Positions 36,695 to 40,738 of a stretch of 64,000 bases of DNA are shown here, in pieces. How positions within the stretch are numbered: the stretch's first letter is position 1; every line of letters begins with the position of its first letter. Origin of the DNA: Gammaproteobacteria bacterium (lineage in GTDB: Bacteria > Pseudomonadota > Gammaproteobacteria > JAADGQ01); the NCBI GenBank assembly GCA_021648145.1, contig JAKITI010000007.1, forward strand, positions 1,018-65,017, given 5' to 3'. Made by a program: the position numbers and the translations under genes. The notes below the pieces were generated by a model that searched no databases, was not told the DNA's origin, and saw only the letters and a list, made by a program, of their open reading frames with translations.

Positions 36695-39600
36695 ATGTAC
36701 TATTTTAACAAGAACAAGAATAAAAAAGCTGAATTTAAACCAATAAAATATATCAGCAAATTATCTCTTTCACTTGTCATAGCAACATCACCTGTCATAA
36801 GTCATGCCGTTTTTGAAGCGAATCCTGCTGGGGAAATTTCTCTGGCGGGCGCTAAAAATGGAGGGGTGGCCTGGAGTGATTATAATAATGACTCTTGCCT
36901 TGATATCTTGGTGAATGCTGGCAATGTTCAGCTTTTGCAGCAAGACAAGGCTGATGGAATCTGTATGGGTACTTTTAGTATTGCTCGTACTTTTGGCTCT
37001 CCAACAGACGATCTTCGCTCTGTCGTCTGGGGCGATTTTAATAATGATGGGTATACTGATTTTGCTGTTAATAAATTTAATCAGCTGGTGATCTATAAAA
37101 ATGTTGATGGTACGGCGGCATCGTTTATTGACGTATTAAATGAAGATCCCGGTAACTCTGAGGGGTTGGGCTGGCTTGATTATGATGCGGATGGTGATTT
37201 AGATCTTTTAGTGCAAAATCAAGAGATGGGTACGTACCTTTATAAGAATAATGGTAATGATGTTTTTGTTTATTCCAGTATTCACTCAGCGAATAAACTT
37301 GGTGATTATTTGGCCGTCACTGATTTTGATGTGGATGGTGATGTTGATGCCTATATTCGTCGAGATGGGCGAGCCAATAATGATGCACAAATAGATCTAT
37401 ATGTTAACGACGGTACCGGCACCTTCTCACTCAATAATACAGTCAATGAAAACTCACCTAATAATAATAAGGGTGGGGCAGTTTTTTGTGATTTTGATAA
37501 TGATGGTGACTTTGATCTGGCTCGAACAGAGGGTGGTCAGCAGGGAATTTTTGAGCAGATCAATGGTGAATTTTCTTTAAAAACAGAAACAAGTTTTTCT
37601 GGTCGTTATGAAAGTATTGCTTGTGAAGATGTCAATAACGATGGTCTTGTTGACCTTTTTTTAGGCGGCGAAGTGAGTACGTTGTATCTTAATAATGGTG
37701 ACTTTTCTTTTACAATAGATAACCTGAATATCGCTGAAAATGGGGGTGTTGGCAAAGGAAGCGCCTTTGCTGATTACGATCGTGATGGTGATATGGACCT
37801 GTTGATTAATAAAAACAATGCACCAACAGAGCTTTGGAAAAACCTGAAAAATGATAAAAATTACCTTCAGGTTCAATTAACAACAAATAATCGTGATGCA
37901 TTAGGAGCCACGGTTCGCTTGTATAATGCGGATACAAATGAAGCGGTCTCTGGTGTGCGAGAAATTAATGGCGGTATGGGGTGGGGAAGTCAGGCTGCAC
38001 CTTTTGCTCATTTTGGCGGTATTGATCCAGAAAGTACTTATATTGTACGCGTGAAATTTGTTGGTGGAGAGACCGCTGATCATCCGGTTTTGCCTAGCAA
38101 ACTATGTGATTATCAGTTGCTATCAATTGATAGTGATGGCAGTGATAATTTGCGTGAGTGTACTTCTGATACCGATGGTGATGGTATCAAGGATGACGTT
38201 GATCTGGATGATGATAACGATGGCATTACCGATGCAATAGAAGGTGATGGTGGAGTGGACACCGATAAAGATGGTGTGCCTGACAGTCGTGATTTAGACA
38301 GTGACAATGATGGTTTGTATGACCTGACTGAATCAGGAGCCGATCTGGCGCTGGTACTGGATAACGACAATGATGGCCGTATCAATGGAGATGTGGGCGC
38401 TAATGGTTTGCCAGATTCTGTAGAAACTGCACCAGAGTCTGGTGTGGCTAATTACAATAATGGTCAGCCGGTAGATACCGATGGTGATGAAATTCCTGAT
38501 TTTCGTGATCTGGACTCAGATAATGATGGCATTCCTGATGTAACTGAAGCTGGCGCACAAAATCCTGATAATAATGCATTTATTGGCGAGGGCGCGCCAC
38601 CTGTTGTAAATGCGAATGGTTTAGCTGAAGGTGCCGGCGTGACACCTTTGAATACTGATCGTGATAATGAAGTTAAAGAGCAAGCAGCCAATGTTCCCGA
38701 TTACCGTGATTTAGACAGTGACAATGATGGTTTGTATGACCTGACTGAATCAGGAGCCGATCTGGCACTGGTTATGGATGATGACAGTAATGGCCGTATT
38801 GATGGCGATGTAGGTATGAATGGTTTGCCAGACTCAGTAGAGACTGCGCCAGATTCTGGTATGGTGAATTACAATAATGGCCAGCCTGTTGATACCGATG
38901 GAGATAAACTGCCAGATTATCGTGATCTTGATTCTGAAAATGATGGCATTCCTGATGTGAGAGAAGGGGGTGCCAATGATCAGGATCTTGATGCTAATGA
39001 TGGCCGCATTTATGGCTTTATAGATGGGAATAGTGATGGGCTTGATGACAGCATTGGAAACTCTCCATTACCTGTCCCTGATACCGATGGTGATGGAGTT
39101 TCAGATTATCTGGATTATGATTCAGATAATGATGGCCTGAAGGATCTGGTTGAAGGTGGTGGAATTGATGTAGATAACAACGGTCTCGTTGATGAAATGG
39201 TAGATATCAACACGGATGGCTATGATGACCAGCTTGCAATTACTCCGCTAACAATTCCTGATACAAATGGCGATACAATCCCTGATTTTCGTGATGCTAA
39301 AGAACGGGTAGTAGATCCACCACCTGTCGTTGCAAATTATTCAGAGCTGGAAACAGGTTTGAAAGGTGTTGGCGGAGTGGGTGCAATGAGCCCTGTATTT
39401 CCATTGTTATTGATTGTTTCACTATTTTGTTTAGTGATGCGGAGCAAATCAAAACTCAGTGGTATGAAAGCTTTAAGTGGCTCGGTGTTCGCTGTGGTTC
39501 TAGGTTCAGGCACTCTGTGGGCAACACCCGCAAGTGCTGAAGCGGCAGAACTTGATATGCCTGATCACCAGAGTTCTAGTCAGCGTGTATTTGAATGGCA

Positions 39601-40738
39601 AAGCCGCTGGTATGGTGGTTTAGGGATAGGCCTCTCTAATCTGGAGCCTGATTCGAACGGAACAGTTTACTCTGTTGAAGATAAGCGTAGTCAAGGCGGA
39701 CGTGCCTTTATTGGTTATGACCTGTTTAAACGCCTGAGTCTGGAAGGCTATTATTCTGATCTTGGGGAAGCCAAAATAGCTGGAGTAGGAGCGATTCCAG
39801 GGGGTGCGATTGAGTATCAGGATGTAGGTTTAAGTGCCTTATATTATCTATATAAGCAAAACCTGAATCATGAAGGTTTTGGCTTGTTCGGTAAAATGGG
39901 CGCGGGTCGGATGAGAAACCAGTCAGACTTACCATTTAATCGCCTTAAGGACTACCACCTGTTATGGGGAGGAGGCATTGAGTATGCGTTTAAAAATGGT
40001 TTGGCCTTACGGGGTGATTTTGACTTTTATGACAAGGATTCTCAATTCGTTACGGTGAGCTTGATGAAACGCTTTGGTGATCTCAAACCTGTTCCCGTTG
40101 TTGTACCATTACCGGAAATTAAAGATAGCGATGGTGATGGAGTTGTAGATGAAAAAGATAGATGCCCTGATACAGTTGTTGGTGCAGTCGTTGATATTCA
40201 CGGATGTGAGCTAGATACTGATAAAGATGGCGTTGTTGATCGCTTGGATCAATGCCCGAATACTCCGCAAGGAACTCCTGTTGATGCAGTCGGTTGTCCA
40301 TTAGATAGCGATGGTGATGGCGTAATTGATGCAAAAGATCGTTGCCCTGACACTCGTGCGGGAGCCAAAGTTGATGAGCATGGCTGTGAAATCAAAGAAG
40401 TTATTGTGCTTAAAGATGTACACTTTGATACGGATAAAGCAGTACTAACTGATGCAGCACTACACATTTTAAGTGAAGTAGAAGAGACATTGCGTCAGAA
40501 CCCTGAATTGAATGTCGATGTGATTGGGCATACCGATAGTCGTGGGGGTCACTCTTATAACCAAAATTTATCAATATTACGTGCAAAATCTGTACGTAAT
40601 CATCTGATTGCTGCGGGTATAGCGAGTGAGCGTTTATTCATCAAAGGTTTCAGTTTTGATAGACCAGATGCTGATAATTCAACCCCAGAAGGACGAGCAA
40701 AAAATCGCCGCGTTGAGTTAAATGTTGTGGATCAGTAA
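36695..40738 (+). CDS. single uninterrupted ORF with two protein-like parts (possible fusion or lost stop)
   Basis: Part 1 is about 36695-39463. It has a signal peptide, FG-GAP/VCBS-like repeats (DFNNDGYTDF, DYDADGDLDLL) and about 25 thrombospondin type 3 Ca-binding repeats (DTDGDGIKDDVDLDDDNDG...). It ends in a GlyGly-CTERM-like tail (GVGGVGAMSPVFPLLLIVSLFCLVMRSKSK).

Part 2 is about 39464-40738. It begins with a canonical signal peptide (MKALSGSVFAVVLGSGTLWATPASA). It continues with an 8-strand OmpA-like barrel, TSP3 repeats (DSDGDGVVDEKDRCPDT x3) and an OmpA C-terminal peptidoglycan-binding domain (NVDVIGHTDSRG...LSILRAKSV...RRVEL).

The ORF-table start at 36686 is TTG. The first ATG is at 36695. 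Confidence 0.75.
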   Translation: MYYFNKNKNKKAEFKPIKYISKLSLSLVIATSPVISHAVFEANPAGEISLAGAKNGGVAWSDYNNDSCLDILVNAGNVQLLQQDKADGICMGTFSIARTFGSPTDDLRSVVWGDFNNDGYTDFAVNKFNQLVIYKNVDGTAASFIDVLNEDPGNSEGLGWLDYDADGDLDLLVQNQEMGTYLYKNNGNDVFVYSSIHSANKLGDYLAVTDFDVDGDVDAYIRRDGRANNDAQIDLYVNDGTGTFSLNNTVNENSPNNNKGGAVFCDFDNDGDFDLARTEGGQQGIFEQINGEFSLKTETSFSGRYESIACEDVNNDGLVDLFLGGEVSTLYLNNGDFSFTIDNLNIAENGGVGKGSAFADYDRDGDMDLLINKNNAPTELWKNLKNDKNYLQVQLTTNNRDALGATVRLYNADTNEAVSGVREINGGMGWGSQAAPFAHFGGIDPESTYIVRVKFVGGETADHPVLPSKLCDYQLLSIDSDGSDNLRECTSDTDGDGIKDDVDLDDDNDGITDAIEGDGGVDTDKDGVPDSRDLDSDNDGLYDLTESGADLALVLDNDNDGRINGDVGANGLPDSVETAPESGVANYNNGQPVDTDGDEIPDFRDLDSDNDGIPDVTEAGAQNPDNNAFIGEGAPPVVNANGLAEGAGVTPLNTDRDNEVKEQAANVPDYRDLDSDNDGLYDLTESGADLALVMDDDSNGRIDGDVGMNGLPDSVETAPDSGMVNYNNGQPVDTDGDKLPDYRDLDSENDGIPDVREGGANDQDLDANDGRIYGFIDGNSDGLDDSIGNSPLPVPDTDGDGVSDYLDYDSDNDGLKDLVEGGGIDVDNNGLVDEMVDINTDGYDDQLAITPLTIPDTNGDTIPDFRDAKERVVDPPPVVANYSELETGLKGVGGVGAMSPVFPLLLIVSLFCLVMRSKSKLSGMKALSGSVFAVVLGSGTLWATPASAEAAELDMPDHQSSSQRVFEWQSRWYGGLGIGLSNLEPDSNGTVYSVEDKRSQGGRAFIGYDLFKRLSLEGYYSDLGEAKIAGVGAIPGGAIEYQDVGLSALYYLYKQNLNHEGFGLFGKMGAGRMRNQSDLPFNRLKDYHLLWGGGIEYAFKNGLALRGDFDFYDKDSQFVTVSLMKRFGDLKPVPVVVPLPEIKDSDGDGVVDEKDRCPDTVVGAVVDIHGCELDTDKDGVVDRLDQCPNTPQGTPVDAVGCPLDSDGDGVIDAKDRCPDTRAGAKVDEHGCEIKEVIVLKDVHFDTDKAVLTDAALHILSEVEETLRQNPELNVDVIGHTDSRGGHSYNQNLSILRAKSVRNHLIAAGIASERLFIKGFSFDRPDADNSTPEGRAKNRRVELNVVDQ

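Follow-up and report, generated by a model that had tools for sequence, protein, structure and literature searches.

A sorting tail followed by a second signal peptide inside one open reading frame points to a cleavable adhesin and OmpA-like precursor in Gammaproteobacteria

Analysis of a 64,000-nucleotide stretch of a Gammaproteobacteria bacterium genome (GenBank assembly GCA_021648145.1, contig JAKITI010000007.1; hereafter the window) uncovered a long open reading frame (ORF) in which an adhesin-like protein with a sorting tail runs directly into an OmpA-like outer-membrane protein preceded by a signal peptide of its own. Sequence comparisons indicate that this ORF is a real and conserved fusion of a pair of envelope genes, probably kept by selection, whose precursor is most likely cut by signal peptidase, and probably by a sorting protease too, into an adhesin and an OmpA-like anchor. 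The frame is unbroken on the + strand from 36686 to 40738, and encodes 1350 aa from TTG 36686 or 1347 aa from ATG 36695 (36695-40738; stop codon 40736-40738); residues are numbered here from ATG 36695. The original prediction that two complete units are joined in frame was borne out by both the ORF listing and the window DNA, which contains no stop codon between 39300 and 39600 and places ATG 39464 in frame.

All features of the ORF lie on the + strand. The first unit begins with a Sec-type signal peptide (MYYFNKNKNKKAEFKPIKYISKLSLSLVIATSPVISHA, 36695-36808) that is predicted from its sequence to be cut before VFEA and is conserved in a close relative (L008, below). It is followed by an FG-GAP repeat region of the beta-propeller type (36809-38035), which forms the passenger or adhesin head and matches the Pfam families FG-GAP_3 (72.1 bits over four stretches) and FG-GAP (18.9 bits), with a weak UnbV_ASPIC match (17 bits) under the Pfam cut-off. 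Next comes an array of bacterial thrombospondin-type-3-like calcium-binding repeats (38168-39304), read from the sequence and annotated in homologues as PF18884 (TSP3_bac). The array contains a long internal duplication, and the passenger part as a whole (aa 1-900) carries 13 D-x-D-x-D-G motifs. The unit ends in a three-part sorting tail. The family motif E-T-G-L-K-G and the Gly-rich signature GVGGVGAMS (ETGLKGVGGVGAMS, 39350-39391, aa 886-899), recognized by sequence and alignment, lead into a transmembrane helix (PVFPLLLIVSLFCLVM, 39392-39439), which was located by a Kyte-Doolittle scan and is predicted to be a stop-transfer segment oriented N-out/C-in, and then into the basic cluster RSKSK (39440-39454), the predicted cytoplasmic loop of a hairpin.

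Three residues (LSG, 39455-39463) separate the basic cluster from the internal signal peptide (MKALSGSVFAVVLGSGTLWATPASA, 39464-39538), which has A-S-A at positions -3/-1, a predicted signal-peptidase I cut at 39538/39539, and EAAE after it. A linker of ~23 residues then leads from the A-S-A site to the first strand of an 8-stranded OmpA-like outer-membrane beta-barrel (39605-40078), followed by three Cys-containing thrombospondin type 3 repeats that form a periplasmic linker (40124-40390) and by an OmpA C-terminal-like peptidoglycan-binding domain (40406-40735). Pfam matches to OmpA_membrane (PF01389, 33.4 bits against a cut-off of 21) and OmpA (PF00691, 68.5 bits against 27.2) are well above threshold, while TSP_3 scores 23.4 bits, slightly below its cut-off of 25. 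The barrel profile matches the transmembrane domain of E. coli OmpA (1bxw, 1qjp, 3nb3; E 4e-5 to 4e-3), and AlphaFold2 builds eight strands in it with a pLDDT of ~80-93, the OmpA C-domain being modelled confidently too. Foldseek searches with this model retrieved 1bxw and 9fzc at a target TM-score of 0.69-0.72 and many OmpA-like C-domains in the PDB at 0.8 or above, and the thrombospondin-repeat and OmpA portion matches 5wtl, the same periplasmic portion of a Capnocytophaga OmpA. The second unit is therefore a member of the OmpA family, with an 8-stranded N-terminal barrel and a peptidoglycan-binding domain, and the architecture first proposed for it, including the signal-peptide-like segment, is supported. 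An autotransporter reading was rejected, as the barrel is of the 8-stranded OmpA type and Pfam finds no autotransporter domain.

Close relatives of the window carry this junction in both fused and split states. Two are fused: L008, found in a genome collection, is the closest relative (84-86% identity), and L004 (protein P0001; 76-82% identity) lies in the same TatC-Psd context as the window. The window, L004 and L008 share an 8-residue linker, and both halves are intact across all three, with 76-86% identity and no frameshifts. A third locus, L001 (P0002), is split: its first gene ends in TGA, and an 11-nt spacer containing the Shine-Dalgarno-like sequence GAAGGGAAGAAGC precedes the GTG start of a 395-aa OmpA-like gene in a different frame. 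L001 and the window are syntenic, with Psd upstream and a giant FG-GAP_2 gene and rubrerythrin downstream, and the N-terminal signal peptide of the L001 OmpA-like gene aligns with, and is homologous to, the internal segment of the window. Thus, compared for a stop codon between the two units, the orthologous loci give a mixed answer, continuous in two cases and interrupted in L001.

At the junction the window, L004 and L008 differ from L001, the closest split relative, by just a 26-nt indel (L001 5761-5777 versus window 39440-39466), a small enough difference that a sequencing or assembly error might be thought to have dropped a stop codon or shifted the frame between two ordinary genes. Such an error, one of the options first raised for this ORF, is extremely unlikely, since the same fused junction and linker length are present in the independent assemblies of L004 and L008, and dozens of more distant homologues in NCBI, ENA and JGI assemblies are fused as well, including one in the genome of the cultured isolate Alcanivorax sp. 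1008. The recurrence of the junction across dozens of divergent homologues also places it beyond chance.

Neighbour-joining trees built from the N-terminal 520 aa and from the OmpA half agree on the topology ((window, L008), (L004, L001)), with fused outgroups. Both trees nest the split L001 among fused forms, and therefore indicate that fused and split states interconvert, as would be expected if a fused precursor yields the same two proteins. The simplest reading looks like an ancestral fusion followed by secondary fission in L001. Such a fission implies that 26 extra nucleotides were enough to create a stop codon along with a ribosome-binding site and GTG start. The suggestion of a recent stop-codon loss holds in so far as two adjacent, co-directional genes were fused, but the event is not recent, given the 76-86% identity range and the position of the split form within the fused clade.

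A different account accepts the fusion as real and supposes that the OmpA-like protein comes mostly from internal initiation at ATG 39464, with the read-through fusion a tolerated by-product. In its favour, the GTG start of the split relative falls at precisely the position of the in-frame ATG; however, L004 has GTA and L008 has ATA at this codon, a Met is missing there from many distant fused homologues, and no Shine-Dalgarno-like sequence was found in the 20 nt upstream of 39464. The codon changes and the missing Shine-Dalgarno-like motif together indicate that independent initiation at 39464 is not conserved. Moreover, with no stop codon in the way, ribosomes translating the first half must run on into the second. 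We consider this account unlikely.

The fusion extends well beyond the window's clade. A homologue search found FG-GAP and OmpA domains in one chain at 36-70% identity in eight proteins (P0001, P0003-P0007, P0019 and P0021), all of which have the tail helix, the basic cluster and a second hydrophobic segment ahead of the barrel, along with ~1000-aa proteins that end straight after the tail (P0002 and P0008-P0018). In order to survey the barrel family, an exhaustive HMMER profile search was run with window 39464-40096 (internal signal peptide and barrel) as query, and recovered 916 representative clusters (50% identity) at E<=1e-3. When the best 150 of these clusters were scored as fused if at least 250 aa lie upstream of the barrel, 46 were fused (~31%) and 95 standalone. 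The passengers of the fused homologues vary widely, from FG-GAP propellers and Ig-like arrays to other adhesin-like heads and long calcium-repeat arrays, while the junction stays constant. A TGLxG-like motif ([TS][GAD][LIVR]x[GA]) followed by a hydrophobic helix is present in 41 of the 46 fused clusters, and the five missed by the pattern match the layout by eye; at least two K/R residues within ten residues after the helix (median four) and a second hydrophobic segment were each found in 38. A small-x-small site is also part of the common layout.

Adjacent genes repeat the same arrangement. In species-representative genomes most matching loci are fused, including those of Oleispira metagenome-assembled genomes, Bacterioplanoides pacificum KCTC 42424 and Alcanivorax sp. 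1008. Six of eight loci with a standalone barrel have, as the next ORF upstream, one that terminates in this motif, tail and basic cluster, and a tailed adhesin gene also lies directly upstream of an OmpA-like gene in L001 and in L002/L003. Together, the fused and adjacent-gene loci define a unit consisting of a tailed adhesin and an OmpA-like partner, encoded as one gene or two. Two of the fused loci come from cultured isolates: in Alcanivorax sp. 1008 (L037, NZ_JAFMPS010000008.1) a 2976-aa open frame at 66-8996 carries the junction RTAISGVGAFGGWLFALIALLLPLRRRLGVMVVVLMPWVAQA followed by SQEPVRFYAGAG, and in B. pacificum KCTC 42424 (L033) the fused junction lies in a gene at 3-1433 that is cut at the contig edge.

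This breadth bears on the view that the fusion is a neutral or mildly deleterious accident, in which an indel removed the stop and left a misprocessed or non-functional product, an incipient pseudogene. The window's clade has lost the invariant Cys found in related tails and has no MrtJ protease gene nearby (both described below), which could be read as decay. Against this stand the two intact halves conserved among the window, L004 and L008, the fused state of the outgroups, the same ordered features in about a third of the family clusters scored, and the retention of the small-x-small site, all of which make an accident distinctly improbable.

We propose instead that the fused product is a precursor processed at the inner membrane. 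The N-terminal signal peptide would send the adhesin part through Sec, the tail helix would stop transfer and leave the RSKSK cluster in the cytoplasm, and the next hydrophobic segment would restart export as an internal signal peptide. Signal peptidase I would then cut after A-S-A (39538/39539) and release the OmpA-like protein, which BAM would insert into the outer membrane, while the two-helix hairpin would hold the adhesin in the inner membrane until a sorting protease, which in relatives would be MrtJ or rhombosortase, cuts at the tail signature. The adhesin may then reach the cell surface, by analogy with the MYXO-CTERM and GlyGly-CTERM proteins carried by type II secretion (PMC11980579), and may act there together with its OmpA-like anchor in the manner of TraA and TraB. 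With fusion, the two partners would necessarily be made in a 1:1 ratio.

The strongest argument for the signal-peptidase step is that the linker between cut site and barrel is so short that an uncut chain would fall well short of the outer membrane. The first barrel strand of many fused homologues begins only ~5-10 residues past the small-x-small site (for example, LHA before the site and AEDNFYVGLGGG after it), a spacing at which the barrel cannot reach the outer membrane unless the chain is cut there. Further support comes from the split gene, in which this segment is the N-terminal signal peptide. Three fused homologues have a lipobox at the end of the internal segment, a feature shared with true signal peptides (ALALVGC in P0180, IALSGC in P0198, FLSSC in P0213), and signal peptidase II would release their OmpA-like half as a lipoprotein.

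These arguments also bear on the possibility of a single uncleaved multi-domain protein, with the hairpin in the inner membrane, both large parts in the periplasm, and the barrel either uninserted or tethering the two membranes. In its favour, processing has been deduced from comparisons, and the tail in the window's lineage matches no known protease signal. However, linkers of ~23 residues here and ~5-10 in many homologues cannot span the periplasm, the barrel is a well-conserved OmpA-type outer-membrane fold, and an analogous myxobacterial protein, MXAN_5598, has been found in outer-membrane and vesicle fractions (PMC4158809). We rejected the trans-envelope tether because the linkers are too short, and regard an uncleaved protein in general as improbable.

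Several observations weigh against the proposed processing. The window tail matches no sorting-domain model in NCBIfam, TIGR03501 included, when three excerpts are searched alone or in context at E<=10, and neither the invariant Cys nor the DP motif of JDVT-CTERM is present in it. The window contains no MrtJ-like or plausible rhombosortase gene, so the adhesin half might never be released from the inner membrane. We infer every processing step, in every member, from sequence; the signal peptides and the hairpin topology were read from sequence and hydropathy, and AlphaFold gives the hairpin low confidence (pLDDT below 50-56), with a low-confidence tail helix and no topology information. The window also retains in-frame ATG 39464, which leaves room for some internal initiation. 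Of the explanations originally offered, a polyprotein is nevertheless the best supported, on comparative grounds only. Relatives use either JDVT-CTERM with MrtJ or GlyGly-CTERM.

The GlyGly-CTERM label first given to the window tail did not survive comparison with the family's own model. Controls pass the TIGR03501 cut-off of 15.5 bits (P0019, 18.4 bits; P0021, 17.3 bits; the neighbouring gene at 44280-50222, 18.1 bits) while the window tail gives no match. GlyGly-CTERM is moreover defined as lying at the extreme C-terminus, whereas the window tail ends at aa 920 of 1347, with 427 in-frame residues after it. Since the tail is not GlyGly-CTERM by this model, rhombosortase is not specifically indicated. 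JDVT-CTERM tails have an invariant Cys and a nearly invariant DP nine residues on (10.1101/2023.06.07.544157); the window tail (GVGGVGAMSPVFPLLL) has SP where DP would stand, and no Cys ahead of the helix. Its relatives grade into that class. Against the JDVT-CTERM model NF033191 (cut-off 27 bits) the window tail has no match, P0001 and P0002 score 15.6 and 21.8 bits on the helix half only, and homologues at 41-45% identity pass at 34-44 bits, among them P0007 (34.1) and P0008 (44.4). In the alignment the stretch C-x-x-N-P-x-A-x-F-D is lost in the window's clade, and the P-x-x-P-L-L-L start of the helix is kept. With family-specific HMMs the window tail scores 18.9 bits as JDVT-type and 14.6 as GlyGly-type, to be read against cross-class maxima of 16.2 and 14.6 bits. 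It thus looks like a Cys-less tail derived from the JDVT type, although its class is uncertain: the assignment is ambiguous, leaning JDVT.

Across the fused family, a Cys between motif and helix, as in JDVT-CTERM, occurs in 10 of the 46 fused clusters, and most of the others are GlyGly-like. Tails have switched repeatedly between the Cys/DP type and the Gly-rich type within one adhesin family, in which P0003, P0004 and P0007 are JDVT-type, P0006 is Cys-less, and P0005, P0019 and P0021 are GlyGly-type. Nearly all members, whether JDVT-type, GlyGly-type or Cys-less, have the motif [LV]-x-T-G-L-x-G directly before the tail (39350-39367 in the window). Its T, L and G are invariant or nearly so (alignment columns T16, L18 and G20), and it lies outside the span matched by the JDVT-CTERM model and, in matching tails, outside that of the GlyGly-CTERM model. 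This TGLxG motif appears to be specific to tails paired with an OmpA-like barrel, and the Cys-less tail that it precedes in the window may represent a new tail class with its own processing enzyme.

Candidate processing enzymes follow the tail type. Fused genes with Cys/DP-type tails have an MrtJ gene immediately or closely downstream. Genes after the cassette in L002/L003, L005 and L007 pass the MrtJ model NF033192 (93-103 bits against a cut-off of 75), and MrtJ-like genes are also found near L010, L016, L017 and L019, so that MrtJ adjacency tracks Cys-type tails. In these systems the Cys, the DP motif and MrtJ have been kept although the tail is internal, which indicates that the internal tail is still under selection and argues for continued processing. 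Tblastn searches with three MrtJ proteins gave no match in the window, L001, L004, L008 or the GlyGly-type loci. Scanned for hydropathy, none of the ORFs in the window encodes a multi-pass protein of rhombosortase size (six transmembrane segments, ~200 aa), and NCBIfam searches of multi-pass neighbours at seven related loci returned SecF, a TIGR00645 protein, a weak sub-cut-off PRK10621 match and unassigned proteins, with no rhombosortase among them.

The gene at 44280-50222 (+) encodes a 1980-aa giant protein with 26 FG-GAP_2 repeats, thrombospondin type 3 repeats and the GlyGly-CTERM tail DGGGAVSILFIFILLIAGRVRFNNK that passes TIGR03501. This true GlyGly-CTERM protein indicates that the genome uses that system, and therefore that a rhombosortase is probably encoded elsewhere in it. 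A 1991-aa counterpart of the giant gene occupies the same place in L001. Between the fused and giant genes, 40912-43911 (+) encodes a 999-aa secreted protein with cohesin, Fn3-associated/CHB_HEX_C and LamG-like domains, which has no counterpart at that position in L001. Further downstream, a 299-aa ORF that matches no Pfam or NCBIfam family and is predicted to have four membrane helices (50836-51735, -) overlaps the end of a gene for a 328-aa protein with a bacterial EndoU nuclease domain (51683-52669, -), and the two may form a toxin plus membrane/immunity pair.

Beyond the window, we tentatively propose a widespread and largely undescribed class of bacterial envelope polyproteins, to which we give slightly less than an even chance, in which a sorting tail (JDVT-type, GlyGly-type or Cys-less) and an internal signal peptide would together form a cleavable inner-membrane hairpin. 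If so, a single ORF would supply a surface adhesin together with the OmpA-like protein that anchors it at the outer membrane, this partner would be a core component of these sorting systems beyond the myxobacteria, and MrtJ, rhombosortase and similar proteases would act on internal tails. LPXTG, PEP-CTERM, GlyGly-CTERM, MYXO-CTERM and JDVT-CTERM tails are defined and searched for as C-terminal features, while here, in about a third of a large family, the tail lies mid-protein with a second signal peptide behind it; if such proteins are cut as proposed, annotation pipelines would miss or misname them. A TraA/TraB-like module of adhesin plus anchor would then be common in marine and vent Gammaproteobacteria, with at least two sorting enzymes, and the fused and split pairs would be a natural experiment on the role of the OmpA-like partner. 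Cultured strains with fused genes (Alcanivorax sp. 1008 and, with a partial gene, B. pacificum KCTC 42424) open this reading to experiment.

Among known systems, classical autotransporters (type Va) likewise carry a passenger at the N-terminus and an outer-membrane beta-barrel at the C-terminus of a single polypeptide, but their barrel has 12 strands rather than the eight of the OmpA type, and the window has an inner-membrane hairpin and a second signal peptide between passenger and barrel. A literature search on internal-signal-peptide polyproteins of the bacterial outer membrane gave no match. The FbcH cytochrome b-c1 precursor of Bradyrhizobium japonicum is a single ORF that yields two envelope proteins through an internal signal sequence cut by signal peptidase; it differs from the window in its proteins and compartment, and has neither a sorting tail nor an outer-membrane partner.

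The sorting systems themselves resemble parts of the window. GlyGly-CTERM, with its rhombosortase (Haft & Varghese 2011, PMC3237569; Gadwal 2018, PMC6219818), shares the order of Gly-rich motif, helix and basic cluster, and passes its own model in the more distant fused homologues P0019 and P0021 and in the neighbouring giant gene, but the window tail has a Pro-rich rather than Gly-rich helix, is internal and fails to match TIGR03501. The words "OmpA", "internal" and "fusion" are absent from the founding paper (PMC3237569). JDVT-CTERM was published as a two-gene neighbourhood of tail protein and MrtJ (Haft 2023 preprint, 10.1101/2023.06.07.544157), in a text from which "OmpA", "fusion" and "fused" are absent. 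The window's family resembles this system through the 41-45%-identity homologues that pass NF033191 and have MrtJ adjoining the cassette, and the window itself keeps P-x-x-P-L-L-L and the TGLxG lead-in; it is unlike the system in its lack of Cys/DP, of a model match and of an MrtJ-like gene in the window.

The closest likeness is found in Myxococcus xanthus, where the MYXO-CTERM receptor TraA and its OmpA-domain partner TraB are encoded by overlapping genes and are needed together (PMC3325183). In both cases the gene for a tailed, secreted adhesin or receptor immediately precedes, overlaps or is fused to that of an OmpA-domain partner with a barrel and thrombospondin-type-3 repeats, and TraB (NF033763) is the best NCBIfam match of the second half of the fused protein, over the repeat and OmpA part. 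At 152-162 bits against a cut-off of 700, however, the second half is not a TraB orthologue. The first half has an FG-GAP propeller head, unlike the PA14 domain with Cys-rich repeats of TraA, and its tail is not MYXO-CTERM; the window belongs to a different phylum, and a function in outer-membrane exchange is not implied. A still nearer parallel, likened here through its published description, is MXAN_5598, called "atypical" in the 2025 myxosortase paper, in which an adhesin, an internal tripartite MYXO-CTERM tail, a barrel and an OmpA domain share one ORF (PMC11980579). Its authors suggest a gene fusion and propose that the N-terminal part is processed, citing work on functional internal tags (PMC11980579), so that calling cleavage at an internal tail mechanistically novel, as in the original prediction, was an overstatement. 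A module like TraA/TraB and a fusion like MXAN_5598 were thus already known; the new elements are the breadth of the arrangement, in about a third of a large gammaproteobacterial family, its use of at least two tail types, the evidence of both fusion and fission, and the Cys-less tail.

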